UHGV virus genome: UHGV-0033546
DNA from: a virus
Direction: 5' to 3' (one strand)
Length of the DNA: 64,000 bases
Part shown: piece after piece, positions 6,778 through 50,561 of the stretch
Numbering within the stretch: position 1 is the first letter of the stretch
Layout: each line of letters starts with the position of its first letter
Notes under the pieces: model-generated
What the model was told of the DNA's origin: nothing
The model's database searches: none
Seen by the model: only the letters and a program-made list of their open reading frames with translations
Program-made: the position numbers and the translations under genes

Positions 6778-6795
6778 AGGGACCCGGAGGTCCCT
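6778..6795 (-). terminator. intrinsic terminator after gene 43 (7-bp stem, tetraloop, U5 tract)
   Basis: On transcript: AGGGACC-UCCG-GGUCCCU followed by UUUUUC; starts 13 nt after the gene 43 stop. Confidence 0.55.
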
Positions 6796-6807
6796 AGATT
6801 TATTCTA

Positions 6808-9504
6808 TCAGCCAAACAGGAAGTCTAACGAAGCTTTTTCCTCATAGTCCATACCTGCAGATTCACACATACCCGCAAGCGGTTTAACAAACGATTTTTG
6901 GAACAAAGTTGAGTAGTCAATCCAAGACAGTACGTCAGAACGAATTTCTTTTGGAAGTTCCGTACCCGATGGCCAAGCAATGCACTTATCACCAAATGGA
7001 TTTCCTTCACGTAATGGAAGAACCATTACCTTATTTCCATCCAAAATTGGAGCTACACCTAAACCGTTAACAGCTCGACGATAAGTTAGTACACCACGAA
7101 TATGGAACGGACATTTAAATCCTGGCCAACCTTTATCATCATATTTCGCTATATCGTTCGCAGTTTTTACTTCAGCAATAACTTTATAGTCAAGTTGACG
7201 ATATTCTTTCTCGAAGTTCTTGTAATATTCTTGGACAGACTCTTCACCTTCCTGAAGAATACGACGAATACTTTCTTCGAGAGCTTCTTGGACCGCTTTA
7301 GGCGTTGAGCTCTGCTGAGTTTCCATACCCATGATTTTTAGATGCGGTTCGGCAAATCGCTTATCTTCCATATCATAAACGTTCAGAGCATAACGTTTTT
7401 TCGCTTTCCAAAATCCACCGACACCCTTTGAACCAAGCGGAGGGCAAGAAATAGCTTCACGGTCCATATGCATCAGATGCTCGCGGTTATTCATATAATC
7501 ACATAACTCGCGATATGCAACATCAATCATAGGTTCCATCTTTTTCTTACCGAACTGATTCATGAATTCAACTAAATCATTTTGTTCTTTAAAGCGATCA
7601 AGACCTACTTTTTCAATAACTTTATCTACACAAACATATACCGAATCAGTATCACCTGCTGCGATGAAATCTTCACCATTAGTTCCACATACTTTATTCA
7701 GATATTCATTAATTTTGCGAGCAATCCACTGAATACCGACTTGACCGAAAATTGTGATAGCAGTAGCATTTCGCAAATCATAGTAACGGAAATGAATATT
7801 ACCAAGAGCACCATAAAGACTGTTAATAAGAATTTTACGGTTCAGCTGATTTGTGTTAGCAAGTGTAGCAGCTTTTTCACATTCTTCAATCAGACTATTA
7901 AGAACAGATTCGGTGTAATTCGATAATTCGTTTAAGAAATCATCACTGAACTTAACATATCGTTCAACTTCTGGTTTAGTTGAGCAAGACCCTGCACCTT
8001 TCATAATAATCTTTTTAATAGCTTCGGCATTCATTTCTTCCGCGAACATTTTCTTTTTCCAATCTTTACGCTGGAAAAATACTTTAGCGATTTCCTTTGG
8101 AATGATACCTTCTTGGTGCTTATCATACATCCATCCATTCGGAGAGCAAGAATATTCATCACTTGGCTTAGGAGCTGTTCCTGCGATATATTCATGAATT
8201 GGATGAACTTTAAACTGCCCACGAATAGTCTCAGGACTAATGTTAACCTGACGAATAATGCTAGGATACAGAGACGTCAAGTCAAAACTCATAATGTATC
8301 GACGAGCAATCGGTTTAGGTTCAAACACAAATGCACCTGGAAAACTCTGTTTAACGTGCGAACCTTGTTGAGGAATAACCTTATGTTCACCTTTCAATGA
8401 GTTAAAAATAATAGCATCCCAAGTTTTAATAGGACTCATTACACCAGAAAAAGGCATTTTAGCATAATAAGACATACTTAAAACTAGATCGATAAACCCA
8501 CGAATTTTATCAATTGCTTGAACTGATTCTACGTCAATGATGTTATAACTAATGTATCGTTGATGATTAGTCTCACGAAGTTTATTAATAGGACCATCGT
8601 ACGGCAATTTACCTTTTTTGGTTTCATGTTGAGCAACTGATTCCAAAGAGAATGACGGCAAATTAGTAAAAGCGAATTTCTTGTACAAATCTAAATAATC
8701 AAGAATAGATACGCCATCAATAGAATAAATTTCTTTGCTACCATACATATTTTGAATTAGTTTAGATTTTACTCGACCGATTGGAGAGAAGCGTTTCATA
8801 CTGCGTTCGCCCAGAACCATTTTAACACGATTCATGATATACGGAACGTCAAATCCCTCAATATTCCAACCGGTAAAAATAGCAGGTCGTTTCTGTTCCC
8901 AGAGATTAATATATTCCATGAGCATATCACGCTCATTATCGAATGGCATATAAATTACTCGGTCAAGAATTTCTTGAGGAACTTCATCACCACCTTCACA
9001 GTCAAGCTTAGCAGCTAACTTTGCATCCCATTTTGATACTGAACCGTACATTGAATTCAAAAGGTCGAAAACATAAAAACGATCATCAATTGAATCATAA
9101 TGGGTGATAGCATCAATTTCATATTCTGCTTTCATTGGGTCAGGAAATTTATCACCAGTAACCTCAATGTCGCAGTTAGCTACACGAACAAATTTTCGGT
9201 CATAAACAATTTCTGAACCATATGTATCACTGATATAAGCGAGTTTAAAATCGTTCATACCAAGAGCTTCGAGACCGATGTCTTCCATTCGTTTCATCCA
9301 ATCTCGGGCATCTTTCATTGATGGAAATTTTTGAGGAGCACAGTTTTTACCGTAAATGTCTTTGTACTTTGACTCTTCCTTACAGTGCCTAAACATAGTC
9401 GGAAGATATTCTACTTCGCGAGTACGTTCCTTTCCGTTTTCATCAATATAACGCTCAACAATGTTATTTCCGACTGTTTCAATAGAGATATAAAATTCTT
9501 TCAT
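6808..9504 (-). CDS. 43: gp43 DNA polymerase (family B), 898 aa
   Basis: 898 aa; exonuclease and polymerase motifs (DTDS); N-terminus MKEFYISIETVGNNIVERYIDENGKER and C-terminal DFLFG match T4 gp43 as recalled. Confidence 0.97.
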   Translation of the reverse strand: MKEFYISIETVGNNIVERYIDENGKERTREVEYLPTMFRHCKEESKYKDIYGKNCAPQKFPSMKDARDWMKRMEDIGLEALGMNDFKLAYISDTYGSEIVYDRKFVRVANCDIEVTGDKFPDPMKAEYEIDAITHYDSIDDRFYVFDLLNSMYGSVSKWDAKLAAKLDCEGGDEVPQEILDRVIYMPFDNERDMLMEYINLWEQKRPAIFTGWNIEGFDVPYIMNRVKMVLGERSMKRFSPIGRVKSKLIQNMYGSKEIYSIDGVSILDYLDLYKKFAFTNLPSFSLESVAQHETKKGKLPYDGPINKLRETNHQRYISYNIIDVESVQAIDKIRGFIDLVLSMSYYAKMPFSGVMSPIKTWDAIIFNSLKGEHKVIPQQGSHVKQSFPGAFVFEPKPIARRYIMSFDLTSLYPSIIRQVNISPETIRGQFKVHPIHEYIAGTAPKPSDEYSCSPNGWMYDKHQEGIIPKEIAKVFFQRKDWKKKMFAEEMNAEAIKKIIMKGAGSCSTKPEVERYVKFSDDFLNELSNYTESVLNSLIEECEKAATLANTNQLNRKILINSLYGALGNIHFRYYDLRNATAITIFGQVGIQWIARKINEYLNKVCGTNGEDFIAAGDTDSVYVCVDKVIEKVGLDRFKEQNDLVEFMNQFGKKKMEPMIDVAYRELCDYMNNREHLMHMDREAISCPPLGSKGVGGFWKAKKRYALNVYDMEDKRFAEPHLKIMGMETQQSSTPKAVQEALEESIRRILQEGEESVQEYYKNFEKEYRQLDYKVIAEVKTANDIAKYDDKGWPGFKCPFHIRGVLTYRRAVNGLGVAPILDGNKVMVLPLREGNPFGDKCIAWPSGTELPKEIRSDVLSWIDYSTLFQKSFVKPLAGMCESAGMDYEEKASLDFLFG

Positions 9505-9545
9505 AGATATTCCTTAGTTTATAGCCCGAGTTATTAGGCTCTTGA
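9505..9545 (-). promoter_or_regulatory. gene 43 translational operator region (5'UTR hairpin plus SD)
   Basis: mRNA reads GAGCCUAAUAACUCGGGCUAUAAACUAAGGAAUAUCUAUG, which I recall as the gp43 autogenous-repression operator; assignment from memory. Confidence 0.4.
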
Positions 9546-9562
9546 TATATTATACTCCAAAT

Positions 9563-9580
9563 AAGGGGCCGAAGCCCCTT
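9563..9580 (-). terminator. GC-clamped hairpin with UUCG tetraloop downstream of regA
   Basis: + strand AAGGGGC-CGAA-GCCCCTT; on minus transcript C(UUCG)G loop; weak U tract, so possibly attenuator or RNA stabiliser. Confidence 0.4.
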
Positions 9581-9582
9581 GC

Positions 9583-9951
9583 TTAATTACCAATCGTATA
9601 TTTAGGAACGAGTTTCCATTCATGTTTTTGTTTAAAAGAAATAACTCGGAAGTTATTAGTTAGATCTTTCATAAAAGTTCTTTGACCTGGAGCGATTTCA
9701 ATCAGTCCCCAATCTTCTAACAGCCACGCAATCGAATCACGGCGAACTTCATCTTCTTCTGTCATTTCAACCTGACGGCCATCCATACGAAGCATTTCTT
9801 TAAAATGAACGATATAGTATAGTCCTTTTTTCTGAAGAATATGACAGGACTGATACAAAACTTTATCTTTATTATTAGCAATTCCCATACGAGTCAAAGT
9901 TTCTTTTACTTTCAGAAAATCTTCAGGTTTTTTAAGAGTAATTTCAATCAT
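9583..9951 (-). CDS. regA: RegA translational repressor, 122 aa
   Basis: 122 aa between 62 and 43; sequence matches T4 RegA as recalled. Confidence 0.85.
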   Translation of the reverse strand: MIEITLKKPEDFLKVKETLTRMGIANNKDKVLYQSCHILQKKGLYYIVHFKEMLRMDGRQVEMTEEDEVRRDSIAWLLEDWGLIEIAPGQRTFMKDLTNNFRVISFKQKHEWKLVPKYTIGN

Positions 9952-9952
9952 T

Positions 9953-10516
9953 TTACCATTCCAATGCTAGTTTTTTGAGTTGTTTCTGTTCTTTTACATT
10001 CTTAGTCACTTCTTTTAAAAAATCATCCGTGACTAAACCTTTTAGTTCTTTTAATACTAAAGGAAGTTTTCCATTTTTAGTAAGAATTGATTTATAGTTA
10101 ATTGCATCATTTGTATTAACTTGATACCGTTTAGCAAGTAACTTAATAATCAATACTTCGGTAGAATCTTCAACCAGTTTTGCCCATTTACCATATCTTT
10201 TACCACGAGGAACTGCAGCCATCAGATAATTAAAATGAGCTTCATCACTTAATCCGGAACCGATTAAATTCATTGCATATACAGCTGGCATGCACTCCGG
10301 AAATTGTGATAATGCATTTTCAACCATGAATTTTGAATAATCTTTTTGAGCAATAGAGCATTTAGTTTTATTATTAATAGCTCCAATTATTTCAAAAAAT
10401 TCATTTTCAGATTTTTCCTTAAAAGAATCAGCAGCAGATTGGACAGCTGTCCAATCTTTTGAATACCAAGCAACTTGATGCTTGTTTAATTGAATATCAT
10501 CTTCAAATAAGCTCAT
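9953..10516 (-). CDS. 62: gp62 clamp-loader small subunit, 187 aa
   Basis: ATG at 10516 in TGATATG overlap with gene 44 stop; 187 aa; matches T4 gp62. Confidence 0.85.
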
Positions 10517-10517
10517 A

Positions 10518-11477
10518 TCACTTCCACTGCATTTCACATGCTAATTGAATGAAAAGATATGCTAAATGTAATTCCGTATTAGCCGCAATTCCATGATACT
10601 GATTATTTTCACCAACAATTTCATACATACGAATAATACTTTGCGGAGTTACACGTGAATAAATTTCTTCGGCAAGTTTACCTACGAACCACGAATAATC
10701 AGCTGCATATTTTGGTGCTAAAGCTCTGAGTTGTTTAACATCTTTATTTTTGAGAGACTCAAGAACATCATCAATAGCACCACGATCGTTAGTAACCAAT
10801 GATAAAATACCAGCATCCAAAACACCTTTAGATGAATAACTATCGAGCTCACCAATAGTTTTACGAAAATCAGGAAAATTCTTTTTAACCAAAGCTGCTA
10901 CAACTTTCATATCAGCTATAGCAATTCCTTCATGCTTGCAGATTTCAGTCAATCGACGAATCATCTGCTTCATCATTTCAATTTTATCTTCATCAGTCGG
11001 TTGACCGAATGTAATAACTCGGCAGCGTGACTGAAGCGGTTTAATAATACCATCAATATTGTTAGCAGTAATAATAATACTACAGTTTGAACTATAAGCT
11101 TCCATAAAGGAACGAAGATGTCGCTGAGACTCTGCTAACCCTGAACGGTCAAATTCATCAATAACGATTACTTTTTGACGACCATCAAATGAAGCTGCAC
11201 TAGCAAAATTAGTCAAAGGACCACGAACGAAATCAATTTTACAATCTGACCCATTCACAAACATCATATCAGCATTTACATCATGACACAATGCTTTTGC
11301 TACAGTTGTTTTACCTGTTCCTGGAGAAGGAGAATGAAGAATAATATGTGGAATCTTACCTTTACTTGTAATAGATTTAAAGGTTTCTTTATCAAAGGCG
11401 GGAAGAATACATTCATCGATAGTAGATGGACGATATTTCTGTTCAAGAATGTGTTCTTTTTCATTTACAGTAATCAT
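10518..11477 (-). CDS. 44: gp44 clamp-loader ATPase (RFC-like), 319 aa
   Basis: Walker A GTGKTT, SRC motif; ATG at 11477 (MITVNEKEH) with GAGGAA SD; matches T4 gp44. Confidence 0.9.
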
Positions 11478-11507
11478 AATTTCCTCATTCAAGTTTTAGT
11501 GTAAATT

Positions 11508-11529
11508 ATAAAGGGCCGAAGCCCTTTAT
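11508..11529 (-). terminator. hairpin with UUCG tetraloop between 45 stop and 44 SD
   Basis: + strand ATAAAGGGC-CGAA-GCCCTTTAT; followed on transcript by UUUAUAAUUU. Confidence 0.45.
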
Positions 11530-12215
11530 TAAAAATCATGGGTAGAATCAGCTTCAAGAGCTACTACATAATTCGCGTGTTCACCTTCAAATTTAGCAGC
11601 ACCTTGTTTACCTTTTGCCCAGAGCAGAAGTTTATAATTTCCTGGTTGCATTTTCATATTTGCCATATTGATAATGAAATTAAATGTATTTTCACCATCA
11701 TAATCACCAAGATTCAAAGAATATTTAACACGGGTCAGAGCAGAATCTTCTACTTTATTAAAACCGTTAATTACGATTTTACCTTCTTTTACCGTGATAG
11801 CAATTGTATCAATTTGCAGACCACGAGATACACGCAACAGTTGTTGAAGGTCTTCAGCTTTAATTTCAGTAACAACAGATGCTACCGGGAATGGAATTGG
11901 TTTATTAGGAGCAACTACTGTACTCGGATCGGCTGCTGGCCAAAAAATTGTTGAACGAGCATCAGCAATTTTAATATTTCCATCTTCTGATTGGGAAATT
12001 TCTGCATCATCATTAACTAGGGACAGAATACCGAGAAAACCGTTCAAATCGTAAATTGCTACATCAAAATCAATAGTGTCAGAAATATTTGCTTCCGCAT
12101 AAGTTGTACCATTAACTGCGCGAGTCATAATAAATTGACCAGATTTAAGCATAATACCGGAGTTAATAGTAGCGAAATTTTTCAAAATATTCAGTGTGTC
12201 TTTAGATAATTTCAT
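11529..12215 (-). CDS. 45: gp45 sliding clamp, 228 aa
   Basis: 228 aa; sequence matches T4 gp45 as recalled; ATGA overlap with upstream endonuclease-like ORF. Confidence 0.9.
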   Translation of the reverse strand: MKLSKDTLNILKNFATINSGIMLKSGQFIMTRAVNGTTYAEANISDTIDFDVAIYDLNGFLGILSLVNDDAEISQSEDGNIKIADARSTIFWPAADPSTVVAPNKPIPFPVASVVTEIKAEDLQQLLRVSRGLQIDTIAITVKEGKIVINGFNKVEDSALTRVKYSLNLGDYDGENTFNFIINMANMKMQPGNYKLLLWAKGKQGAAKFEGEHANYVVALEADSTHDF

Positions 12216-13485: not shown

Positions 13486-13494
13486 AATACACCT

Positions 13495-13683: not shown

Positions 13684-13738
13684 GTTTTTCCTCCATAGAG
13701 ATTATACTCTAATAAATTAAAGCATAATCTCTTGTAAA

Positions 13739-15421
13739 TTAAACCATTACAGTAAATCGACCAACTTTCTTCATCTGAAGATGCTGACCATATTCTTGCG
13801 GGTCATGGTCTTTATGTGAAATTATAAAAACATTAGTGTTTTTCATTGAATTTATAATATTAGCTACACCTTTAATACCTTCAGCATCAAATGACCCGTC
13901 AAACACTTCATCGAGTATTAATGTACTAATACTAACACCAGATACAATAGAAGCAATATCACGCCAAGTAAATAAAAGAGCAATATCAATTCGCGCTTTT
14001 TCACCTTCACTAAATGAAGCATAACTAAAATCTTCACGACCACGGGATTTAATTGTTTCATTAAATTCTTCATCTAATGTAAACACATAATCCGCTTCCA
14101 TTATTTTAAGATAATGGTTAATCTGCTTATTAAATAATGGAATGTACTTTTTAATAATAGCACCTTTAATACCAGAATCTTTGAGCATATCAGTCAAAAT
14201 TCCTCTGTGGTATTTTTCCATTACTAAATTAGTTTTTGTTTTAACAATTTTATCAAGTTCTTCTTGAAGCAGTGCTATTTCATCAGCATGGTCAATAAAC
14301 TCGGATGATGCTTTTTCGATAGCCGCTTTAACTTTTTTAGCTTTATCTACTGTGGTGATTAAAGACTGCTTTTTATTGCGAATATCATTTGCCAACGTCT
14401 GTTGGGTTTTAATATTATCTCGGTATTCATCAACGAGAACTTTTAAATTATCACGATGTGTTGAAAGCTGTTCAAACGAATGTGTGCATTCAGAAACTTT
14501 ATCTTTAATTTTAGAAACAACTTTATCACCGGAACTTAATTGTGACAAACAGGTTGGACATAATCCACCTTCGTGATACATATTAATGACTTTATTATAC
14601 GAGTCAATTTTTGATTTAATTAAAAATGCTTCTTGACCGATTTTATTAAATGCATCAGTCGGGTCTTCATCCAAAACAATATTAACTAATCTTTCATTAG
14701 CTTCTTCTATTTCCGATTTTAGTGTTCTAGCTTCTTTTGCCAAATCATCATACATATTCTGTAGACGAGTAAGATTATCACCAGTTAATTTTTTCTGGCG
14801 TTCAACATTATCGTTATATATTTTAATTTGTTGGATAATACTGTCTTTTTTAACATCAAGCACTTGGTTCTGCGAATTTAATTCACGTATTAGTGCTTTA
14901 TTAAGCTTATCCATTTCAGCTAATGTTCCTACCTCAAGCAGGTCTTCCACAAGCTTTCTTCGCGCAGGGGTCGACAAACCCATGAAAGGGGTATACCCTG
15001 CTGTACCAAGGACAACAATCTGCTTGAAACTGGCATATGACATTCCGATAAGCTGTTCAAATTCTGCTTGGAAATCTTTACTGCTGGCAGATTCATTAAG
15101 ACGTGTACCGTTAACGGTGATTTCGAAAACGTTTGGTTTTTGTCCTCTTTTGATATAGTACTTTTTCTCATCATATTCCATCCACAATTCAACTAAAAGT
15201 TCTTTCTTATTTGTGCTGTTTATTAATTGGCCTTTCTTTACATCACGAAATGGCTTGCCAAAAAGCCCAAATGTGATGGCTTCTAACATAGTAGACTTAC
15301 CACCGCCATTTCGTCCAGTAATAAGAGTTTTTTGAACCTTATCTAATTGAATGTCAACTCCATTTTGACCAACTGACATTATATTTTTATATTTTACTCT
15401 ATTAAGTTTAAATGATTTCAT
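13739..15421 (-). CDS. 46: gp46 recombination endonuclease subunit (Rad50/SbcC-like ATPase), 560 aa
   Basis: Walker A GRNGGGKST, long coiled coil with CPTC zinc hook, C-terminal signature and Walker B; 560 aa as in T4. Confidence 0.9.
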   Translation of the reverse strand: MKSFKLNRVKYKNIMSVGQNGVDIQLDKVQKTLITGRNGGGKSTMLEAITFGLFGKPFRDVKKGQLINSTNKKELLVELWMEYDEKKYYIKRGQKPNVFEITVNGTRLNESASSKDFQAEFEQLIGMSYASFKQIVVLGTAGYTPFMGLSTPARRKLVEDLLEVGTLAEMDKLNKALIRELNSQNQVLDVKKDSIIQQIKIYNDNVERQKKLTGDNLTRLQNMYDDLAKEARTLKSEIEEANERLVNIVLDEDPTDAFNKIGQEAFLIKSKIDSYNKVINMYHEGGLCPTCLSQLSSGDKVVSKIKDKVSECTHSFEQLSTHRDNLKVLVDEYRDNIKTQQTLANDIRNKKQSLITTVDKAKKVKAAIEKASSEFIDHADEIALLQEELDKIVKTKTNLVMEKYHRGILTDMLKDSGIKGAIIKKYIPLFNKQINHYLKIMEADYVFTLDEEFNETIKSRGREDFSYASFSEGEKARIDIALLFTWRDIASIVSGVSISTLILDEVFDGSFDAEGIKGVANIINSMKNTNVFIISHKDHDPQEYGQHLQMKKVGRFTVMV

Positions 15422-17754: not shown

Positions 17755-17914
17755 ATGTCAAGAACCGTCATTGAAATGCAAAATAAAATTATTGAAATAA
17801 ACCCATCTGGTGTGCTAAAGAACCCAATCCAACATGCTCTAGTGAATAAATAAAACGCGAGAAAAAGTATCACATATCCAAGAAATATCATTATATCAAA
17901 CTCCGTATAAAGCT

Positions 17915-17932
17915 AAAGGGCCGAAGCCCTTT
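17915..17932 (-). terminator. hairpin with UUCG tetraloop overlapping a-gt stop
   Basis: + strand AAAGGGC-CGAA-GCCCTTT; 7-bp stem. Confidence 0.45.
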
Positions 17933-19133
17933 ATTTTGTAATAATGTCAAACTGTTCTTTAAAGCAGAAGCTTGAATCTTGATGCTGATACAAAAATTCA
18001 TAAGCTTTTTCTCGCTCACGGTCATAAAGAGCTCGGTCAGATGACAGTTCTTTAATACGCTCGAATGTCGATTCCATGTCATTTTCGTCAAACCAAACGA
18101 TACCGCTATCATGAGAAATTAACGGAGTATTATCAACACGGAATTTTAAATTTTCGCCAGTAGATTTCCAAAATACCGGAATTGTTCCACACGCTCCAAG
18201 CTCGAGATGAGTATATTCTAAAGAACGTTGTAGATATTTTTTGTCCAACTTACTCAACTGATAACCAAAACCGGATTTACTCATGCGTTCAAGCATTTCG
18301 CTATTTACATAACGATCAAGAATTTGCGTTGGCAAATTAGGAGCAATTTTAATTTGGTCTACTTGATGAAGACGATAATACTCGTATGGAATTCCTTTTT
18401 CTTTAATAGGAATGAACGCTGGAGAACGTTCCAGACCTTCCATAATAGTACTTAGCCCAGCAGGTTTAAGATGTTTTTCGTGGAAATCAAACATCTGATA
18501 AAAACCTTTCCATGTAGTCGTACGACCAATCCAACGATTGACATTCATGTTAATTTTAGAAACATCTTTCCAGTAGGTTGATCGAACCTTCGCAATATCC
18601 ATAGGAGGCTGAAAGTTGTATACAGTCGGTGCTTCTTCAATATCATCAAACAGAGAAACCGTTTCTGGATACCATTCTTTCATCAAAACTTTATTAAAAT
18701 CGCCATTATCAGAATGACTAAAAATAACATCAGCTCGACGAACAGTTTCTTCTAATCCCAAATTTCGACGCAAAGAAAGAGAAGAATGGTCATGTTGATA
18801 AACTACAACACGAACCGAAGGTTTAATGTTATCAATAATTTTTTTATAGTTATTAATAGTGTCTTCTTCGACTGAAGTAGCAGGAACTGAATTGATAATT
18901 AGAATATCACAATCATTTACCAGCTTAAGCGTTTTATCATATTCTTTTGCCAATAAAACCGGAATTGAAAATGATTTATAATCATGTGCGCAATTACGAG
19001 TAAATGATTTATCTTTAGCATAAACCAAAGTTACTTCATGACCATTTTTAATAAACCAATCACGTTGCTCGAGAGAAAATTTAGTTACACCACAACCTTC
19101 AAGACCCCGAGCCATAAAAATACATACTTTCAT
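17931..19133 (-). CDS. a-gt: alpha-glucosyltransferase (DNA hmC alpha-glucosylation), 400 aa
   Basis: 400 aa; sequence close to T4 alpha-gt as recalled. Confidence 0.9.
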   Translation of the reverse strand: MKVCIFMARGLEGCGVTKFSLEQRDWFIKNGHEVTLVYAKDKSFTRNCAHDYKSFSIPVLLAKEYDKTLKLVNDCDILIINSVPATSVEEDTINNYKKIIDNIKPSVRVVVYQHDHSSLSLRRNLGLEETVRRADVIFSHSDNGDFNKVLMKEWYPETVSLFDDIEEAPTVYNFQPPMDIAKVRSTYWKDVSKINMNVNRWIGRTTTWKGFYQMFDFHEKHLKPAGLSTIMEGLERSPAFIPIKEKGIPYEYYRLHQVDQIKIAPNLPTQILDRYVNSEMLERMSKSGFGYQLSKLDKKYLQRSLEYTHLELGACGTIPVFWKSTGENLKFRVDNTPLISHDSGIVWFDENDMESTFERIKELSSDRALYDREREKAYEFLYQHQDSSFCFKEQFDIITK

Positions 19134-19183
19134 TTAATATCCTCATTGTTTTGGTTTATTTTACCAAAAATTTATAAAGCAAT

Positions 19184-19203
19184 ATAGGAGCCGAAGCTCC
19201 TAT
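19184..19203 (-). terminator. hairpin with UUCG tetraloop upstream of a-gt (8-bp stem, U-rich tail)
   Basis: + strand ATAGGAGC-CGAA-GCTCCTAT. Confidence 0.45.
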
Positions 19204-19866: not shown

Positions 19867-19867
19867 A

Positions 19868-21554: not shown

Positions 21555-21570
21555 AAGGGCCGAAGCCCTT
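21555..21570 (-). terminator. hairpin with UUCG tetraloop
   Basis: + strand AAGGGC-CGAA-GCCCTT between two small ORFs; U-rich tail. Confidence 0.4.
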
Positions 21571-22241: not shown

Positions 22242-22401
22242 GATCGCAAATCAAGCGTTTATTCCATTTAAGTAAAGTATAGTGAACATCTAGATCATCT
22301 ACTGCTGTAACAATAACAATATGTCCATTAACACGATAATACTGATCTCTTTTAATCTCTTTATCAACCATATCAAATCCTCAAAGGCAATTCATATGTT
22401 A

Positions 22402-22430: not shown

Positions 22431-22512
22431 CAACTTTGTGAAAATTATTTTAGGTAATGATAAGAAAGGAACGATAGCTTAGAATGGTAATATACAGAAT
22501 GTGAGAAAGAAA

Positions 22513-22525
22513 GGCCCAGAGGGCC
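22513..22525 (-). terminator. short GC hairpin immediately after nrdH-like stop
   Basis: + strand GGCCC-AGA-GGGCC. Confidence 0.3.
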
Positions 22526-22529
22526 CGTC

Positions 22530-23469: not shown

Positions 23470-23940
23470 TTAATCATGTTTCCACACCCCATTGGTATTT
23501 GACCAAAGCCGCTGATTATCTGATCCTCGCCACAGCTTTTTGGTCGGAAGATTTTTCTCATACTTCCCATCAATAATAACATCAACATATTTAAGCATTT
23601 CTAGTTGTTTAATATCTTCAAACTTATATCCTGTCCACAACCAAATGCTTTTATTTGGATAAAGATTTTTGATAGTTTGAACCACAGAGTGAATTACATC
23701 TCTATTATCAGGATAAAGAGGGTCACCTCCGGTTATAGTTAATCCTTCTATATAATCGTTATTCAAGCATTCAATTAATTGTTCCAGTGTTTCACCAGTG
23801 AATGGAATACCATTTCTAGCATTCCATGTTGATTTATTATAACACCCTTCGCATTTATGCAAACAACCTGTAACGAAAAGAACGGTCCTGCACCCAGGAC
23901 CATTAATAAAATCGCAAGGATAAATTCTATCGTAATTCAT
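23470..23940 (-). CDS. nrdG: NrdG anaerobic ribonucleotide reductase activase (radical SAM), 156 aa
   Basis: Cys cluster CLHKCEGC, 156 aa, ATGA-coupled to nrdD. Confidence 0.9.
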   Translation of the reverse strand: MNYDRIYPCDFINGPGCRTVLFVTGCLHKCEGCYNKSTWNARNGIPFTGETLEQLIECLNNDYIEGLTITGGDPLYPDNRDVIHSVVQTIKNLYPNKSIWLWTGYKFEDIKQLEMLKYVDVIIDGKYEKNLPTKKLWRGSDNQRLWSNTNGVWKHD

Positions 23941-26224: not shown

Positions 26225-26272
26225 AATAAACCCTTACCTTAAATAGATAAGGGTATTTATTATTTTCAAGTA

Positions 26273-34542: not shown

Positions 34543-34578
34543 TTTATTCTCCAATTTCACATTTGTTTTGATAGGGTA

Positions 34579-34607
34579 ATAGTATCACACTACTACCCTA
34601 CTGTAAA
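34579..34607 (-). promoter_or_regulatory. early-type promoter: -35 TTTACA (34607-34602), spacer 17, -10 TACTAT (34584-34579)
   Basis: Minus-strand reading; upstream of the AAA ATPase gene. Confidence 0.45.
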
Positions 34608-35116: not shown

Positions 35117-35136
35117 AGGGAGCCCGAAGGCTCCCT
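35117..35136 (-). terminator. hairpin with UUCG tetraloop immediately after the nucleotidyltransferase-like gene (8-bp stem)
   Basis: + strand AGGGAGCC-CGAA-GGCTCCCT. Confidence 0.45.
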
Positions 35137-36611: not shown

Positions 36612-37133
36612 TTATCCTTTCATTGAAGGTGTAACAGTTGTTAAATACTTAATCATAGCTTCAGCTTCTGATTTTGATAATGAAATTTCTCCATTGTTTT
36701 GACGAATAGAAATAAAATCCGGATGACGGTCACCACCAGCTTTTAAAACACACATATAAGTATCAACTTCATCTTCAATATCTGAAATGATTGAAGCAGT
36801 TCCACACGAATGTGGTTTTTGATAAATCAATACAGCTTTTCTTCCACCGTTTGACTGTTCATAAACTTTTAACACATCAAACAAATCACTTCTTTTATCA
36901 ATAGCTAAGATGTTGTTTTCATCTTCAATGTTAAATCCTTCGGATACTTCATAAAGTGTCACCCATAAATCGCCAATATCAATAACAGCGTTCACTTTTC
37001 CATGACTTTCAAGAGCATGACAAATTTTCTTGATTTCGTCATAACTCATTTTAATAATATCATCTCCTTGAATAAGAAAGATGTCATTTTTAAATTCAAC
37101 ACGAATTAAACCACTTCCACTTGAAATAAACAT
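36612..37133 (-). CDS. hypothetical protein, 173 aa (tandem paralog A)
   Basis: Shares N- and C-terminal motifs with the adjacent 183-aa ORF. Confidence 0.5.
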   Translation of the reverse strand: MFISSGSGLIRVEFKNDIFLIQGDDIIKMSYDEIKKICHALESHGKVNAVIDIGDLWVTLYEVSEGFNIEDENNILAIDKRSDLFDVLKVYEQSNGGRKAVLIYQKPHSCGTASIISDIEDEVDTYMCVLKAGGDRHPDFISIRQNNGEISLSKSEAEAMIKYLTTVTPSMKG

Positions 37134-37691: not shown

Positions 37692-37872
37692 TTAAAGTCT
37701 CAATTAATTCTCTTAATTTAAAAGCTTGCTCATTTGTCATTACATACTCCTCTGAATCATATCAATAATGTTGTTCACCAAATTATAAGTAAACATTGGG
37801 TAATTATATTGAATCATCACATACACAACAAGCAAAACTTTCATTCTCTTCTCCTTGGCAGTTGACAAGATT

Positions 37873-37901
37873 ACTATACCATAACCTTGCCAACTTGTAA
37901 A
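37873..37901 (-). promoter_or_regulatory. early-type promoter: -35 TTTACA (37901-37896), spacer 17, -10 TATAGT (37878-37873)
   Basis: Minus-strand reading; upstream of an unlisted 36-aa hydrophobic ORF (ATG 37844, AGGAG SD). Confidence 0.4.
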
Positions 37902-38713: not shown

Positions 38714-38729
38714 CCGGTAAAATGAAAAA

Positions 38730-38747
38730 AGTCTCCCGAAGGAGACT
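38730..38747 (-). terminator. hairpin with UUCG tetraloop just after the 128-aa ORF
   Basis: + strand AGTCTCC-CGAA-GGAGACT. Confidence 0.45.
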
Positions 38748-41054: not shown

Positions 41055-41505
41055 AATCCACCACTATTAAATCAATATCAGGAGTAAACATGTCGATTAA
41101 TTTAGAAACCTTATCCCAATCACCGCCAGCAATACCACAACCTATACGTGGAATGTAAATTACTGGTTTAAACAAAAGGGTTTCTGCCTGTAGATTTAAT
41201 TCTATCATACAGTTTACTAAAGCACCATAATCAAGATTAGAACCCGGTTCGTATTGCGTATACAAATTATAGCACATACTAAATCCTGTAGGATTATGTT
41301 TAAAAACAATAGACATGTCGCCTAATTTATCACGAGAACCGTACTCGGTAGTGGTTTTATCTATTTCTAAAATTTTGGGATAGGCTCTTGCTAATTGACC
41401 CGCTACGCCAGAGCCCATTGTATGGAAGCAATTGCACCCGTGCGCAATAATATTACCTCCAAGAAAGAGGGCGACAATATCGCCCTTGATATATTTTACA
41501 ATCAT
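41026..41505 (-). CDS. macrodomain (ADP-ribose binding/processing) protein, 159 aa
   Basis: Macro-fold motifs: KGDIV...NIIAHGCN, glycine-rich GSGVAGQLARA, and IPRIGCGIAGG. Confidence 0.55.
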   Translation of the reverse strand: MIVKYIKGDIVALFLGGNIIAHGCNCFHTMGSGVAGQLARAYPKILEIDKTTTEYGSRDKLGDMSIVFKHNPTGFSMCYNLYTQYEPGSNLDYGALVNCMIELNLQAETLLFKPVIYIPRIGCGIAGGDWDKVSKLIDMFTPDIDLIVVDYESTLPASV

Positions 41506-42387: not shown

Positions 42388-42394
42388 GTTTACC

Positions 42395-42856: not shown

Positions 42857-42883
42857 GTTATTCTCCTCTTAACTGATAGGAAA

Positions 42884-42912: not shown

Positions 42913-42915
42913 CAG

Positions 42916-44035: not shown

Positions 44036-44041
44036 ATAACC

Positions 44042-44907: not shown

Positions 44908-45060
44908 TTTGTTCTCTCTAGATTTGGGCCATTCCATGGCACATGAATTGTCCATTCCTGTATTTACCCATTACCGCGCCCGGGCTCGACCTTATTACAG
45001 GTTGGCGGGAATCCCTCACAGAATCATGAGGTCCAGGTTGTTCCCATGTTATTTACTGTA

Positions 45061-45534
45061 TTATTTAAATGATTTGACGTACTGAACAGAACCTTTGCTA
45101 TTCACGAAAGCGATTTTACCATTTTTGTTATACATGGTAGCAGTACGCTGATAGCCATAAGTTTGCTTACCAGATTGATAACCAACTAATGCAAAATTAT
45201 CTTCGCCCATTTTATTCTGTTTAGCACGAATACGCTCATGACCGTGAGCCATAAGAACCTTAGCATCGCCAGTTGCAATGGATCTACGAGTTTTTTCATC
45301 TTCAACTGTATTAACAAAGTCGTCAAATGAATCAAATTTAGCATGAGATTTATTATACAGTTTTCCATCTACTGCATAATTATATCCCTGTACATCCATC
45401 TCAACTTCTGTACCATCATCCAATACAGCAGTGATTTTTTGACCTTTTTTAAATTTCAAAAGATCAGTAAAAGATTCAGCAATAATTTGAGAATTAATAG
45501 CTGCTTCAGTGATAAATTCTTGATATGTTTTCAT
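45061..45534 (-). CDS. internal-protein-like head protein with capsid-targeting leader, 157 aa
   Basis: N-terminus MKTYQEFITEA matches the T4 IP capsid-targeting sequence (cleavage expected after ...E-A); body unlike T4 IPII/IPIII by length. Confidence 0.6.
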   Translation of the reverse strand: MKTYQEFITEAAINSQIIAESFTDLLKFKKGQKITAVLDDGTEVEMDVQGYNYAVDGKLYNKSHAKFDSFDDFVNTVEDEKTRRSIATGDAKVLMAHGHERIRAKQNKMGEDNFALVGYQSGKQTYGYQRTATMYNKNGKIAFVNSKGSVQYVKSFK

Positions 45535-45543
45535 GTGTTTCCT

Positions 45544-45960
45544 TTAAATGTAAATATTTTTACCGTAATACTTATACCAGTGTGGTTTCATTAAAATTTT
45601 TTCATCGAGTCGTTGTTGACTCAACTTAATAGCTGATTTGCATGGGTTATAATCATTTTTCCATTCTACTGGAATATCGCTGATGTCAGGAACTTCAGTA
45701 TCTTTTATACTGAACCCGCGTTTTAAGCATTCCGTTATAATGTCTGATTGACGCTTTCGCAAAAATTCTAACTTATCGTAAAAGAACGTAACATGACCAG
45801 AACCTAAAATAAACTCGGAAGATATTTTAAAATCTTTAACTCTCTTACCATTTGCCACATGTTTACGAACTATACCAAAAACGCGTGGCAATTCACGGTA
45901 TTCTGCAATTAAATGCTGATCAGCAAGTTCAGATACTAAAGTCAAATTAATACGAGTCAT
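45544..45960 (-). CDS. denV: DenV endonuclease V (pyrimidine-dimer DNA glycosylase), 138 aa
   Basis: 138 aa; [17 protein letters not shown]...[10 protein letters not shown] conserved with T4 DenV, diverged in C-terminal half. Confidence 0.85.
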
Positions 45961-45985
45961 TTTATCCCTCCAAGTAACTGTGAAT

Positions 45986-46014
45986 ATACTATCACAATTC
46001 TAGGAGAAAGTAAA
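45986..46014 (-). promoter_or_regulatory. early-type promoter: -35 TTTACT (46014-46009), spacer 17, -10 TAGTAT (45991-45986)
   Basis: Minus-strand reading; 26 nt upstream of denV ATG. Confidence 0.4.
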
Positions 46015-46019
46015 CAACT

Positions 46020-46550
<531 letters not shown>

Positions 46551-46991
46551 TTAAAAGAGGTTGTTCATTATTCGGTAAAGTGAAGGACCCATCACATATT
46601 GCCATTGAGTACGAGGAATAAGAGCAAAAGCGTCCATCTCTGGAATCATAACTCCATCTTTATTTTCAAAATAAGACTCGCAATGGCAATTTCTGAACAT
46701 CTCATGCTCTACTGGAATCGTATAATAAAATAACTGCAGGTCTTTATTACTAGAATATTTAAATACACCTAGGTCTTCTAGAAGGTCTGGATTATAATTG
46801 CTAAAACCAGTCTCTTCTAAGCATTCTCTTTTTGCAGCTTCCAGCGCATTCAAATCAGAACTTTCTACACGCCCCTTTGGAATATCCCAACGATGCGCCA
46901 TCATTCCAGGCTTACGAGAACCGGTGACCCGCCCCATAAATAAATCTTTATCTTCTGTCATAAAGATAATACCAGCTGATAGTGTTTTCAT
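46551..46991 (-). CDS. nudE: Nudix hydrolase NudE, 146 aa
   Basis: Nudix box GRVESSDLNALEAAKRECLEETGF. Confidence 0.85.
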   Translation of the reverse strand: MKTLSAGIIFMTEDKDLFMGRVTGSRKPGMMAHRWDIPKGRVESSDLNALEAAKRECLEETGFSNYNPDLLEDLGVFKYSSNKDLQLFYYTIPVEHEMFRNCHCESYFENKDGVMIPEMDAFALIPRTQWQYVMGPSLYRIMNNLF

Positions 46992-47476
46992 TTTAATTTC
47001 CTACATTCAGTGATAAAGTTATTTAAATTTTGAGTATATTTCTTTTCATCAAAAATCTTTTGTTGTCTACGTAAACGCCATGGCATTTCAATGAACACAC
47101 ACCATATTCCTGATATTACTGCTGTTATAAAAACATTAACAAGCAGAGTAAAAAGAGCCCAATCTCCTATTCTATCCATTGGATTTTTTCCAAAGAAATA
47201 AAATACGAATGATGACATAGGAAAACTAATGATATACCACAGAAGCATATTCTTGCCTGTAAACCAATCAGCGTTCGTTAACTTAGCGCGACCGTTTTGA
47301 ATACACACGAATTTATCGTCTGTTAAAGTAGATGGCTTAACTGCTTGATATCCCATTCTAAACTCCCTAATTAACAAATTTTTCATATCTTCGGAACAAC
47401 CATTCCAGTCAACTCTATCAACTGAAATGCCATCATCCCCATCATCTAAATCATACCAGCGAGTTTTAAAAATCAT
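46988..47476 (-). CDS. membrane protein, 162 aa
   Basis: Two to three TM helices in C-terminal half. Confidence 0.5.
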   Translation of the reverse strand: MIFKTRWYDLDDGDDGISVDRVDWNGCSEDMKNLLIREFRMGYQAVKPSTLTDDKFVCIQNGRAKLTNADWFTGKNMLLWYIISFPMSSFVFYFFGKNPMDRIGDWALFTLLVNVFITAVISGIWCVFIEMPWRLRRQQKIFDEKKYTQNLNNFITECRKLK

Positions 47477-47835
47477 TTAATTTTCCTACAATCACTCACA
47501 AACTCTTTCATTGATTCGTTTTCAATATAAGACATGTAGCTATTATATTCCTTTAATTGTATTTTGTAATCCTTTTTTCTTTGCCAATTTATTTTAAAAT
47601 TATCATAATGAAAATATAACATGGTACCAAAGAATGAAAATAATGAAATCGCTATAGTATAACGAAGTTCACTCCAAACCTCTGTTATAATTACTGTGCC
47701 GTCAATGTTTAAAATAAAACAGTCAATTAACAATCCAATAAGACTACCAGCAAGAGCTGTAAATACTGATACGGCAAGAATTAATAGTGCCTCAGGAAAC
47801 GAATATTTGACTTTATTTAATTTTGGCTTTTGCAT
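47473..47835 (-). CDS. membrane protein, 120 aa
   Basis: Two TM helices. Confidence 0.5.
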   Translation of the reverse strand: MQKPKLNKVKYSFPEALLILAVSVFTALAGSLIGLLIDCFILNIDGTVIITEVWSELRYTIAISLFSFFGTMLYFHYDNFKINWQRKKDYKIQLKEYNSYMSYIENESMKEFVSDCRKIK

Positions 47836-47904
47836 CGTGATTCCTTAACAAATTTCATAATTTCATCAAATTCATACGCAGCAAGTTTAAGTTGGTGTTC
47901 CTTT

Positions 47905-48204
47905 TTAATCTTTCCAATCGCGTACGCGTTTACGGTAATGTCTTCCTTGATACCAGTATCCTATCCAATTTACGGGTACTAATAAAAGTGGAATTATCAT
48001 TGGAAGAATTAGTGTTGACACAAATATTACACCAAATTTATTGGCAGTCATAACGTCTATAACCATTCCAACTACAAATGATACAACTACCACAGGACCC
48101 ATTAATACATCAGTAGAAATTATCTGACGCTTTAATTCATACTTCAACGGTTTACTTGGAAGGTATAGTGATGGTTTTGACATATTCTCTACATTCCTTA
48201 ACAA
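47905..48204 (-). CDS. membrane protein, 99 aa
   Basis: Two TM helices. Confidence 0.45.
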   Translation of the reverse strand: MLRNVENMSKPSLYLPSKPLKYELKRQIISTDVLMGPVVVVSFVVGMVIDVMTANKFGVIFVSTLILPMIIPLLLVPVNWIGYWYQGRHYRKRVRDWKD

Positions 48205-48766
48205 ATTTTTCTAATAATAAATCGCTTTCAAAATTGGGATTTTCTACGAATTTATCAAAAAGATCATCAACAATAGTTAAGATATTCTTTTTACTAAGAA
48301 TACGTTTATTTTCATGCTTCGTTTCAGAATCAACTATAAGAGTAAAGAAATATTTCTTGCCATGAAATTTTACAGTAGTATCAATATAGAACAAATTTGA
48401 CTTTTGTAAATTACGTTTAAACCATGCGTCACTTAAACTATAAACGCCAAGATAATCATAATCGTCATTTAAATAACAAACTGTCCATTCAGGAGAAATG
48501 AAATCAGTAAATTCAACATCAAAATCACATGTCAATGAATGAATTGATTCAATGCTGTTAATAAGTATTCCAGGACGTATTAAAGACTTTTTACCTCTGG
48601 AAAATCTTCCAGAAAGGCTTTCATCAGTTTCATATGAAGAACCCCAATAATAATTACGTCCTTCTGCCATACGTTTAAGAGCATTTAGTAATTGGTCTGG
48701 AACATCAACCTGTCTTTGGAACTCTTCAAACATTGAATTGAAATCACTTTGCATTTTCATTTTCAT
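48152..48766 (-). CDS. hypothetical protein, 204 aa
   Basis: Track ORF. Confidence 0.5.
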   Translation of the reverse strand: MKMKMQSDFNSMFEEFQRQVDVPDQLLNALKRMAEGRNYYWGSSYETDESLSGRFSRGKKSLIRPGILINSIESIHSLTCDFDVEFTDFISPEWTVCYLNDDYDYLGVYSLSDAWFKRNLQKSNLFYIDTTVKFHGKKYFFTLIVDSETKHENKRILSKKNILTIVDDLFDKFVENPNFESDLLLEKFVKECREYVKTITIPSK

Positions 48767-48786
48767 TCCTATTTACTCCAAGTAAT

Positions 48787-48802
48787 AGGGGCCGAAGCCC
48801 CT
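48787..48802 (-). terminator. hairpin with UUCG tetraloop
   Basis: + strand TAGGGGC-CGAA-GCCCCTTA between 48808 stop and 48766 start. Confidence 0.4.
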
Positions 48803-48807
48803 TATCA

Positions 48808-49401
48808 TTATTTCAGAGAATTAATGTATTCCTGAACATCGGCAGAGGTAGTTTCAACCCCAGAAATATTACCGTTAAAGGTTTCAACTCGAGCAAGGGT
48901 ATCTTCAATATCAACCTTAGTCAGTGCTGCAATTTCAACTACATCATCGGCAGTACTAATTCCAAGGGCATTTGCTGCACGAGTTTCACGGATATATTCC
49001 AATTTAACCGCAAGTTCTTGACGAGCATCATCTAACTCAACTACTTTCTTGGCGATTTCAATTCGCATTTCAGCATAACCGTCAGCCTTAGTAGTCAACT
49101 GCTCAGCTGTTCGACGATATAGTAAACCGAGTTTAGCATGCATTGTTACATCTTGACCTTCGGAAAGAAGTTTACGAATTTCACGCTCTTTTGATTCGGC
49201 CTGTCGATTCTTTTCGATAACAAGTTCACGAATACGTTTTTCTTCGTTAATAGATTTAATAGAAGCAGTTTTTAGATCTTTAATTTTATCAAGTAGTTTT
49301 GCTGCTGCAGCAGTATACTGTTCTTCGACAGATAGATTTTTAGCCATAGCAGAACCAAGTTTAGTGCGAATAAACTCAACAATTTTCTTCAGTGTGTTCA
49401 T
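48808..49401 (-). CDS. coiled-coil protein, 197 aa (PspA/IM30-like architecture, unconfirmed)
   Basis: Continuous charged heptad-type helices over about 170 aa; resemblance to PspA judged by eye only. Confidence 0.45.
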
Positions 49402-49505
49402 AGTATTTCCTTAGGTTGATTAAGATTTAAAATCCGTAAAAGTAGTATTATACTCTATCATCAAGTCACAGGCTCATAATATCTCAATCATGAGCCTATG
49501 TAAAC

Positions 49506-49781
49506 TTATTTCATATTATTGAAATATTCTTCTGCGATTTCGTCGTTATCATGGTAAACTTTAGAAGACAGTTTAACATAACCTTCAGCAGTGAACATGT
49601 TAATCACAACCTTTACAGTATACCACTGACCGTCTTCATTACCCATTACTGCGTAAGTTTCAAACATCGGATGATCAGGACCGATAACTTTAATATCATT
49701 CACTGTACGACCAAAATCTTCTGAAACGCATTTCATAAAGAAGTTAAACAGTTCGCCGTAATTATCCATTTCATTCTCCAA
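49506..49781 (-). CDS. hypothetical acidic protein, 91 aa
   Basis: Track ORF with early promoter upstream. Confidence 0.5.
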   Translation of the reverse strand: MENEMDNYGELFNFFMKCVSEDFGRTVNDIKVIGPDHPMFETYAVMGNEDGQWYTVKVVINMFTAEGYVKLSSKVYHDNDEIAEEYFNNMK

Positions 49782-49812
49782 GTTGTTTTCTGTATCAGTA
49801 GTTGATAGTTGT

Positions 49813-49841
49813 ATAGTACCATGGAAGAACAGTCTTGTAAA
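49813..49841 (-). promoter_or_regulatory. early-type promoter: -35 TTTACA (49841-49836), spacer 17, -10 TACTAT (49818-49813)
   Basis: Minus-strand reading; strong AT-rich UP element. Confidence 0.45.
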
Positions 49842-49980
49842 CAGTTTTGTGAAAAAATTTTTAAAAATTTTTAGGGAATTCTAGGGCAGGGAGGGGAAAT
49901 TAAAAGGTAGGATAATATATTATAAAGGGTATAAACTAAATGATGCCTAGAAAGGCCCGGAAAGGCCTAGATACCAAAAA

Positions 49981-50002
49981 GCCCCAACCTTTCGGCTGGG
50001 GC
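49981..50002 (-). terminator. intrinsic terminator, 9-bp stem with GAAA tetraloop and U5 tract, immediately after the IP-like gene
   Basis: Transcript GCCCCAGCC-GAAA-GGUUGGGGC followed by UUUUU; near-identical twin at 50540-50561. Confidence 0.6.
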
Positions 50003-50010
50003 TAAGAATG

Positions 50011-50484
50011 TTATTTGATTTGTTTAGCAGACCAAATGCGGTCTTTAATAATTTTTTGGATGTCTTCAACATACTCTAGGTCATGAGCATGTGGATTATC
50101 TTTAAAACTATGAGCTCGCGCAAGTTTCTGGCCTTCGGTCTTAATTACCAAAAGTTCTTTAAGGATAGCTTCATATTTAGAGATAATTCCTTTAACAATA
50201 TTTTTCTCTTGTGCGGCTTTAGGATCTGCTTTAGGAGCAGGTTTACCCGAAGCCTTTGCAAAAGCAGCTCCAGTAGCAACTAGACTTTTCCAGGCCATAC
50301 TAACCGCATTTCCCGTAAATCCTTCTGCTTTCATGTCGCGAGCAAATTGGAATCGTGATTCGTCAGAAGCATCTTTATAAGAATATTTACCCGCTGCAAT
50401 GGCTGCTTTTGCAACAGCTTGAATTTCGGTGCTAGATGCTTCATTTAACACCGCTTCATTTAAAAATTGAGTATATGATTTCAT
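50011..50484 (-). CDS. internal-protein-like protein with capsid-targeting-like leader, 157 aa
   Basis: N-terminus MKSYTQFLNEA follows the IP leader pattern; Ala/Lys-rich body; own late promoter and flanking terminators. Confidence 0.5.
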   Translation of the reverse strand: MKSYTQFLNEAVLNEASSTEIQAVAKAAIAAGKYSYKDASDESRFQFARDMKAEGFTGNAVSMAWKSLVATGAAFAKASGKPAPKADPKAAQEKNIVKGIISKYEAILKELLVIKTEGQKLARAHSFKDNPHAHDLEYVEDIQKIIKDRIWSAKQIK

Positions 50485-50524
50485 CTTATTTCCTGTTTTA
50501 ATTCGTGGATTTAATATACTACTA

Positions 50525-50532
50525 TATTTATA
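50525..50532 (-). promoter_or_regulatory. late promoter box TATAAATA
   Basis: Exact consensus on minus strand 41 nt upstream of ATG 50484; AGGAAA SD in the UTR. Confidence 0.55.
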
Positions 50533-50539
50533 CTAAAAA

Positions 50540-50561
50540 GCCCCAACCTTTCGGTCGGGGC
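50540..50561 (-). terminator. intrinsic terminator, 9-bp stem with GAAA loop and U5 tract (twin of 49981-50002)
   Basis: Transcript GCCCCGACC-GAAA-GGUUGGGGC followed by UUUUUAG; closes the tRNA/small-RNA transcription unit. Confidence 0.6.

Follow-up and report, generated by a model that had tools for sequence, protein, structure and literature searches.

The 64,000-nucleotide stretch of UHGV virus genome UHGV-0033546 analyzed here (hereafter the window) is AT-rich, with a G+C content of approximately 35%, and carries a series of short GC-rich hairpins, most of them capped by tetraloops, at the ends of genes read from the minus strand. An earlier note, made from the sequence alone, had listed twelve of these hairpins and proposed that they are used as terminators or RNA-stability elements and could also be substrates for recombination. 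The question raised by the locus is whether the hairpins act in RNA or in DNA, and whether one function can account for all of them. We find that the hairpins are real and non-random, but that they belong to T4 biology that is already known. They are very probably RNA-level elements of the T-even phages located at the 3' ends of cistrons, those followed by a U tract acting as terminators and the others as stabilizers of the upstream message.

The identity of the phage was established by comparison with sequenced genomes. A 20-kb stretch of the window is 96–97% identical to many Tequatrovirus genomes, such as that of Escherichia phage EC121, and the entire window is collinear with T4 from approximately 19.7 to 84.8 kb, the collinearity being interrupted by 18 indels or replacements. 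By its sequence, the window belongs to Tequatrovirus (T-even or T4-like phages). The minus-strand genes from position 1 to approximately 57,000 correspond to the early/middle region of T4, and include matches to genes 41, 40, uvsX, 42, 43, regA, 62, 44, 45, 46, 47, a-gt, and 55, as well as to nrdG/D, nrdC, tk, vs, regB, e, the tRNA cluster, and others.

Composition and Strand of the Hairpin Family

A GC-rich hairpin was found at each of the twelve sites of the earlier note, within approximately 3 nucleotides (nt) of the listed position, but the core GGGC-CGAA-GCCC that the sites had been thought to share is present in exact form at only five. These five matches to the core (GGGCNNNNGCCC/GGGCCGAAGCCC) in the window compare with an expectation of 0.08. 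Other stems among the twelve contain GGAGC, GGAGCC, UCUCC, GGACC, or CCCCRRCC. The loop had been given as CGAA, which is the plus-strand reading; the minus-strand transcript reads UUCG. The transcript loop is UUCG at eight of the listed sites, UCCG at 6778, a 3-nt UCU at 22513, and GAAA at 49981 and 50540 (the last three are entered at 22512, 49980, and 50539 in Table 1). A C(UUCG)G loop on a Watson-Crick stem is found at 2938, 9563, 11508, 17914, 19184, 21555, 35117, 38730, and 48787, and the C(UCCG)G loop of the 6778 hairpin belongs to the UNCG class. The hairpins at 22512 and at 49980/50539 fall outside the C(UUCG)G definition, the latter two having C(GAAA)G loops, which are GNRA tetraloops, on stems of 10 base pairs (bp) that include G.U pairs and are imperfect on the plus strand. 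All thirteen hairpins of Table 1 have at least four G-C pairs and a loop of 3–4 nt.

Hairpins with a UUCG loop and a perfect stem of at least 5 bp were counted on both strands of the window. Ten are on the minus strand and none on the plus strand, compared to a mean of 0.31 and a maximum of 4 in dinucleotide-shuffled sequences. UUCG is by far the commonest tetraloop, with ten occurrences, and no other loop occurs more than three times. Eight of the ten hairpins are located in, or at the edge of, intergenic spacers; the remaining two, at 2938–2957 and a weak one at 36802–36815, are in coding sequence and were absent from the earlier list. The predicted folding energies bear out the listed hairpins, with values of −10.8 to −20.6 kcal/mol and z-scores of −1.9 to −5.0; for the C(UUCG)G hairpins the nearest-neighbor prediction is −10.8 to −16.7 kcal/mol. 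The dinucleotide shuffles and the z-scores of the individual hairpins together rule out chance or base composition as the origin of the family. A search of the window against Rfam returned no family for any hairpin, the matches being the 11 tRNAs only.

The stems themselves do not distinguish between the strands in most cases. It had been claimed that each hairpin is perfect only on the minus-strand transcript, but ten of the twelve stems are perfect palindromes and can form on either strand, the predictions for the two strands differing by 0.6–1.9 kcal/mol. Only the two GAAA hairpins have strand-specific stems, through their G.U pairs. For the palindromic members, the features specific to one strand are loop identity, position, and the U tract only.

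Placement at Stop Codons and U Tracts

The start of eleven hairpins falls between −4 and +12 nt relative to the stop codon of an open reading frame (ORF) on the minus strand, in agreement with the placement after stop codons described in the earlier note, and at four sites (11508, 17914, 19184, and 21555) the stop codon is within the stem. The further statement that most of the hairpins are followed by a U tract holds for seven of the twelve on the minus strand, but not for 9563, 11508, 17914, 21555, and 48787. By the criterion of the prediction tool, the transcript has a U tract at 6778, 19184, 22512, 35117, 38730, 49980, and 50539, the hairpin at 21555 is borderline, and the additional hairpin at 2938 joins those without one. 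The hairpin family is mixed in type.

Conservation of the Hairpins and Covariation of the Stems

Each hairpin of the family was found at the orthologous junction of T4, and eight of the UUCG hairpins in the window are direct orthologues of hairpins in the T4 reference. The differences are small. At the 45/44 and 55.3/55.2 junctions the window stems are slightly more perfect than those of T4, in which single-base deletions are tolerated by means of G.U pairs, and after gene 43 the window has the loop UCCG rather than the UCCA of T4, where the stem is also 1 nt shorter. In the complete T4 genome, the mRNA-sense strand carries 19 of the 20 UUCG hairpins, among them one on the plus strand after the late gene 23 and the known bypass hairpin of gene 60, indicating that the bias in UUCG loops tracks transcription and not absolute strand.

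We also examined two of the junctions in relatives, which were collected by anchoring on RegA and gp45 in contigs of IMG/VR. At the 45-to-44 junction, a tetraloop hairpin is present in all 13 distinct relatives, down to a gp45 identity of 53%, with nine UUCG loops, two UACG, one GAAA, and one UUUG. At the regA-to-43 junction, a hairpin is located just upstream of a conserved GGAGTATAAT in all relatives examined except one, L043, which is the most divergent locus examined. The hairpin at this junction lies either directly after regA or 3–7 nt past the stop codon of an interposed small ORF. Taken over both junctions, the hairpin is kept in dozens of relatives, with UUCG, UACG, UCCG, or GAAA loops. 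At least seven different stem sequences occur at the regA-43 junction; the lineage-specific stems in which pairing is kept are GGGGC, GGGAC, GGAGCC, GGGAG, GGGCC, GGCC, and GCGGG. In an alignment anchored on the loops, 98.6% of the cells are paired, and six of the seven pairs have changed on both sides. As an independent control, the background rate of such hairpins was 2–5% per 112-nt segment. The stems covary while the structure and the class of tetraloop are kept, indicating that selection acts on the RNA structure and not on sequence identity.

The interposed ORF at the regA-43 junction, which many T4-like phages carry (regA downstream regions L003, L007, and L009–L043 of the IMG/VR relatives), encodes 38–79 amino acids, starts at or over the regA stop codon, and is always found before the unit formed by the hairpin and GGAGTATAAT. 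It differs by lineage and is missing from T4 and the window. The translational operator hairpin of gene 43, GAGCCUAAUAACUCGGGCU at 9505–9545 (−), is kept together with the upstream GGAGUAUAAU in most relatives, and is separate from the UUCG hairpin.

Probable Functions of the Hairpins

A role as terminator or RNA-stability element is the standard published reading of such elements in T4 (PMC2988022, PMC1702504, PMC8948821). The first mRNA in which the UUCG tetraloop was found was that of T4 (PMC4371310), C(UUCG)G hairpins of T4 mRNA are credited to Tuerk et al. (1988, PNAS 85:1364) in PMC8948821 and PMC4371310, and intergenic stem-loops of T4, such as terminators, often carry UUCG (PMC1702504). 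A stem rich in GC, a loop of 4 nt, and poly(U) make up the T4 terminators, many of which are computationally predicted; some fall within the 5'-terminal part of a coding region, and one weak example stops about 30% of transcripts (PMC2988022). A paper on the T4 transcriptome (PMC9697503) contains no analysis of terminators or 3' ends. The window hairpins share with the C(UUCG)G hairpins of Tuerk et al. the loop, the C-G closing pair, a mostly intergenic location on the mRNA strand, and the phage group; the published hairpins are further characterized by exceptional thermodynamic stability and by a block to reverse transcriptase. The novelty implied by the earlier note is not upheld, the hairpins having been published in that work, in the descriptions of T4 terminators, and as the PeSL cassettes considered below.

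The proposal of a terminator or RNA-stability role is itself supported by the published reading for T4, by the sense-strand placement after stop codons, by the seven U tracts, by the covarying stems, and by the annotation of both GAAA hairpins as terminators in RefSeq NC_054943 and NC_054926. Judged by their anatomy, these short GC-rich hairpins with stable tetraloops (mostly C(UUCG)G, some UNCG or GNRA) would close early and middle cistrons read from the minus strand, and the UUCG loop would let a short stem fold rapidly and stably in an AT-rich genome. The hairpins with a U tract (6778, 22512, 35117, 38730, 49980, and 50539, and marginally 19184 and 21555) are most likely Rho-independent terminators or attenuators for the host RNA polymerase. 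Several of the terminator-like hairpins precede an early or middle promoter, an arrangement by which one transcription unit would be closed and the next opened. The hairpins without a U tract (2938, 9563, 11508, 17914, and 48787) are most likely fast-folding caps that block 3'-to-5' exonucleases and so would set the stability of the RNA segment upstream; they may also be weak sites of pausing or attenuation. T4 transcribes genes 45-44-62-regA-43 polycistronically, and the hairpins that lack a U tract lie within such units.

The comparison with better-known elements is consistent with this division. The family resembles intrinsic terminators (PMC2988022) in its GC-rich stems of 6–10 bp, its tetraloops, and its U tracts, which are present at 7 of the 13 hairpins; it differs in that five or six members are without a U tract and lie in polycistronic units, where release of the polymerase would probably be inefficient. 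These members resemble the 3' stem-loops that stabilize bacterial mRNAs, for example REP elements and terminator hairpins, in being stable hairpins without a U tract at the ends of cistrons in polycistronic RNA, and the effect expected of them is a block to PNPase, RNase II, and RNase R. In contrast to this class of stem-loops, with its long imperfect palindromes, the window hairpins are much shorter and are capped by tetraloops, and their sequences do not make up one repeated family.

Several points weigh against this interpretation. Five or six members are without a convincing U tract and one of these is inside a coding region, so that one function cannot cover the whole family, and the separation of terminators from stabilizers depends on the U tract alone. 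The nearest-neighbor energy of the UUCG loop is only about 0.9 kcal/mol better than that of the complementary loop, and the exceptional stability attributed to UUCG is taken from published measurements rather than from our calculations. Finally, the covariation alignment was anchored on predicted hairpins and is for this reason biased toward structure.

Stable GC-rich minus-strand hairpins were also noted at 23881–23904 (nrdG) and 41468–41486 (tk.4), which like 2938–2957 are located 16–37 nt past the upstream stop codon. All three are inside the 5' coding part of the overlapping downstream gene, and recall the terminators in the 5' ends of T4 mobE and segF (PMC2988022).

Hairpins and Recombination

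It is improbable, in our judgment, that the hairpins are mainly DNA-level substrates for recombination, that is, dispersed repeats by which gene modules are moved, with any terminator activity being secondary. Such a role has a precedent in the PeSL/PmSL cassettes of T4-like phages (Arbiol 2010, PMC2839356; Comeau 2014, PMC4122927), for which stem-loop-mediated shuffling has been published, including in the T4/PST pair. A PeSL unites a stem-loop and an early promoter of the sigma-70 type within an intergenic element of approximately 100 bp. The window hairpins at 35117 and 38730 resemble these cassettes in having a stem-loop and an early promoter in one spacer, the promoter having the form TTTAC(A/T), 17 nt, TA(C/T)(A/T)AT. 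At 35117, the early-type promoter (35086–35058; TTTACA, 17 nt, TACTAT) is 31 nt downstream of the hairpin, giving a PeSL-like composite. At 38730, GGUUUAC occupies the −35 position of the downstream early promoter (GTTTAC then GATACT), and the entire composite is repeated in T4 at 15277–15319. The 19184 hairpin has instead a MotA-box-like sequence: directly after it, at 19150–19183 (−), are AUUGCUUUA, 11 nt, and UAAAAU, upstream of a-gt, and this element looks like a MotA-box middle promoter for a-gt. The same hairpin is found in T4 at 38715–38734, where the homing endonuclease gene mobB, missing from the window, is inserted before a-gt. Most members differ from PeSLs, however, in having no adjacent promoter (there is none at 6778, 11508, 17914, 21555, or 48787), and most of the indels relative to T4 are elsewhere.

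The one clean case for recombination is the ORF cassette at 50005–50530, which has on each side a copy of one and the same GAAA terminator, the copies being approximately 35 nt in length. In T4 this terminator occurs once, at approximately 70825–70859, with flanks that match the outer flanks of the two copies in the window. Among the 693 matching phage records, the cassette occurs in 461, indicating that it is polymorphic among Tequatroviruses, and an ORF cassette bounded by repeated hairpins is like the mini-circle model for PeSLs. Further features in favor of recombination are sequence identity that extends beyond the stems (the 48787 hairpin is 88% identical to the regA/43 element at 9563 over 35 nt, the 17914 hairpin is identical to that at 11508 across 22 nt, and the 38730 composite has its T4 repeat) and the small ORFs that come and go immediately 5' of the hairpin at the regA-43 junction. 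In one relative, L099 (NC_054926), two additional ORFs have been inserted at 720–1984, right after copy B (at 49980 in the window), along with another terminator, the third at this place and unlike the other two, which suggests, from the sequences compared, that insertions have occurred repeatedly at the spot after the tRNA/rnaC cluster. A Pfam search of the inserted ORFs gave no match for ORF 50011–50484, and none of them resembles a recombinase or homing endonuclease.

A comparison of breakpoints with T4 does not extend this picture to the other hairpins. Only one of the 18 indels or replacements, that of the cassette (50005/50530), ends in a family hairpin; the next-nearest events are the mobB insertion in T4, 35 nt away, and another approximately 100 nt away. 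With 11 of the 106 gene junctions containing a family hairpin, breakpoints are not enriched at the hairpins beyond what their intergenic location would give. The suggestion that the hairpins could be recombination substrates is borne out for the one cassette but not as a general property. In addition, homologous recombination would need sequence identity, whereas the covarying stems point to selection on RNA structure, and the 19:1 bias of the loop toward the sense strand has no explanation at the DNA level.

The tRNA cluster of the window, at 51236–52257 (−), contains eleven tRNA genes (Arg, His, Asn, Tyr, Met, Thr, Ser, Pro, Gly, Leu, and Gln) as compared to eight in T4. The interval from the cluster to rnaC is also unlike that of T4, in which segB is located there.

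Translation Gating and Protein Binding as Unlikely Alternatives

The closeness of the hairpins to stop codons raises another possibility, that they are attenuators gated by translation. A ribosome terminating on the upstream cistron would melt or cover the stem, the hairpin would form and cause termination or pausing only if translation fell behind RNA polymerase, and read-through into the delayed-early genes would need protein synthesis. A ribosome covers approximately 12–15 nt downstream of the A site, and as noted above the beginning of eleven hairpins is within −4 to +12 nt of a stop codon, which in four cases is part of the stem. This close spacing is kept in relatives, in which the hairpin lies 3–7 nt past the stop codon of inserted ORFs. 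Delayed-early RNA synthesis in T4 does need ongoing translation, by a mechanism that is debated (PMC2988021), and gating, if true, would provide a Rho-independent account for part of this dependence. However, tight spacing is also expected from the compactness of a T4-type genome, and the literature credits the dependence on translation to Rho polarity or nuclease protection. We regard gating as decidedly unlikely.

There is very little likelihood that the hairpins are operators for RNA-binding proteins (the RegA or gp43 repressors) or recognition sites for an RNase: although the 9563 hairpin lies between regA and gene 43, near the translational operator of gene 43, and several stems contain GGAG, the cleavage motif of RegB, the gp43 operator is a distinct hairpin further downstream, which has an 8-nt loop and is independently conserved (PMC3014915), the stems vary freely among relatives, which argues against sequence-specific recognition, GGAG buried in such structures is reported to be resistant to RegB (PMC1702504), and proteins are reported not to bind the UUCG loop (PMC4371310).

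The DNA of the loop (GCTTCG) was considered as a MotA box at the regA-43 junction and was rejected. A MotA box lies 11–13 nt from the −10 element, but the GCTT at this junction is at a distance of 15 nt, and relatives with UACG or GAAA loops, or with other stems, keep the hairpin.

Features of the Individual Sites

The coordinates and transcript sequences of the hairpins, and of the cassette bounded by the two GAAA copies, are given in Table 1.

Table 1. Minus-strand hairpins of the family and the associated ORF cassette in the window.
Coordinates (strand)	Transcript: 5' arm-loop-3' arm, 3' flank	Location	Other features
2938..2957 (−)	UCCCCCUC-UUCG-GAGGGGGA	37 nt past uvsX stop, in 5' coding part of gene 40	8 bp; −16.7 kcal/mol; no U tract; identical in T4 (22329-22348)
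6778..6795 (−)	AGGGACC-UCCG-GGUCCCU then UUUU	12 nt past gene 43 (DNA polymerase) stop	Terminator-like
9563..9580 (−)	AAGGGGC-UUCG-GCCCCUU	2 nt past regA stop	No strong U tract; downstream, conserved GGAGUAUAAU, then gene 43 translational operator hairpin
11508..11529 (−)	AUAAAGGGC-UUCG-GCCCUUUAU	Genes 45/44	No strong U tract; gene 45 stop UAA adjoins stem, last base common to both
17914..17933 (−)	UAAAGGGC-UUCG-GCCCUUUA	After a-gt (a-gt/47.1)	Stop UAA is first 3 nt of stem
19184..19203 (−)	AUAGGAGC-UUCG-GCUCCUAU	Stop UAG of upstream small ORF in stem	Terminator-like
21555..21570 (−)	AAGGGC-UUCG-GCCCUU then UUUGG	Between homologues of T4 55.3 and 55.2	Stop UAA overlaps stem
22512..22526 (−)	GGGCCC-UCU-GGGCCU then UUCUUUCU	3 nt past stop codon 22530-22532	3-nt loop; terminator-like; identical in T4
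35117..35136 (−)	AGGGAGCC-UUCG-GGCUCCCU then UUUUUUAUUU	1 nt past nrdC.11 stop	Strong predicted terminator
38730..38747 (−)	AGUCUCC-UUCG-GGAGACU then UUUUUUCAUUUU	4 nt past rI.-1 stop	
48787..48802 (−)	AGGGGC-UUCG-GCCCCU	5 nt past e.6 stop	No U tract; followed by GGAG Shine-Dalgarno of e.5
49980..50003 (−)	AGCCCCAGCC-GAAA-GGUUGGGGCU then UUUUU	7 nt past stop of ORF 50011-50484	10-bp stem with G.U pairs; copy B of duplicated terminator
50539..50562 (−)	AGCCCCGACC-GAAA-GGUUGGGGCU then UUUUU	3' of tRNA/rnaD/rnaC cluster	Copy A of duplicated terminator
50005-50530 (−)		ORF cassette, 525 bp	ORF 50011-50484, 157 amino acids; absent from T4 and T2

A second family of minus-strand hairpins, not on the earlier list, was observed at 1180–1213, 13697–13732, 34571–34601, 37861–37894, 49467–49500, 53252–53283, and 53617–53646. 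These are inverted repeats of 13–16 bp with predicted energies of −14 to −20 kcal/mol, and they span promoters: each begins immediately 3' of an early-type promoter's −35 hexamer (GTTTACA) and runs to about +1, and the −10 box falls in its loop or its 3' arm. They could fold only in transcripts that read through from upstream. They resemble the PeSLs of the RB49 type, in which the stem-loop is between or over the promoter boxes (PMC2839356). Two other minus-strand hairpins cover ribosome-binding sites, the one at 46515–46544 that of gene e (lysozyme) and the one at 26230–26254 that of the gene that follows downstream of 26230. The gene e hairpin agrees with a structure published for T4, by which early transcripts are kept from being translated (PMC3014915).

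Significance for the T-Even Early Region

The value of the hairpins, read as terminators and stabilizers at the 3' ends of cistrons, is in the first place for annotation, since in the early region of T-even phages they would show where transcription units, or stability segments, end. One of them also marks the boundary of a polymorphic ORF cassette. The stems that lie at or over a stop codon offer a handle for asking whether translation modulates termination in the delayed-early expression of T4.

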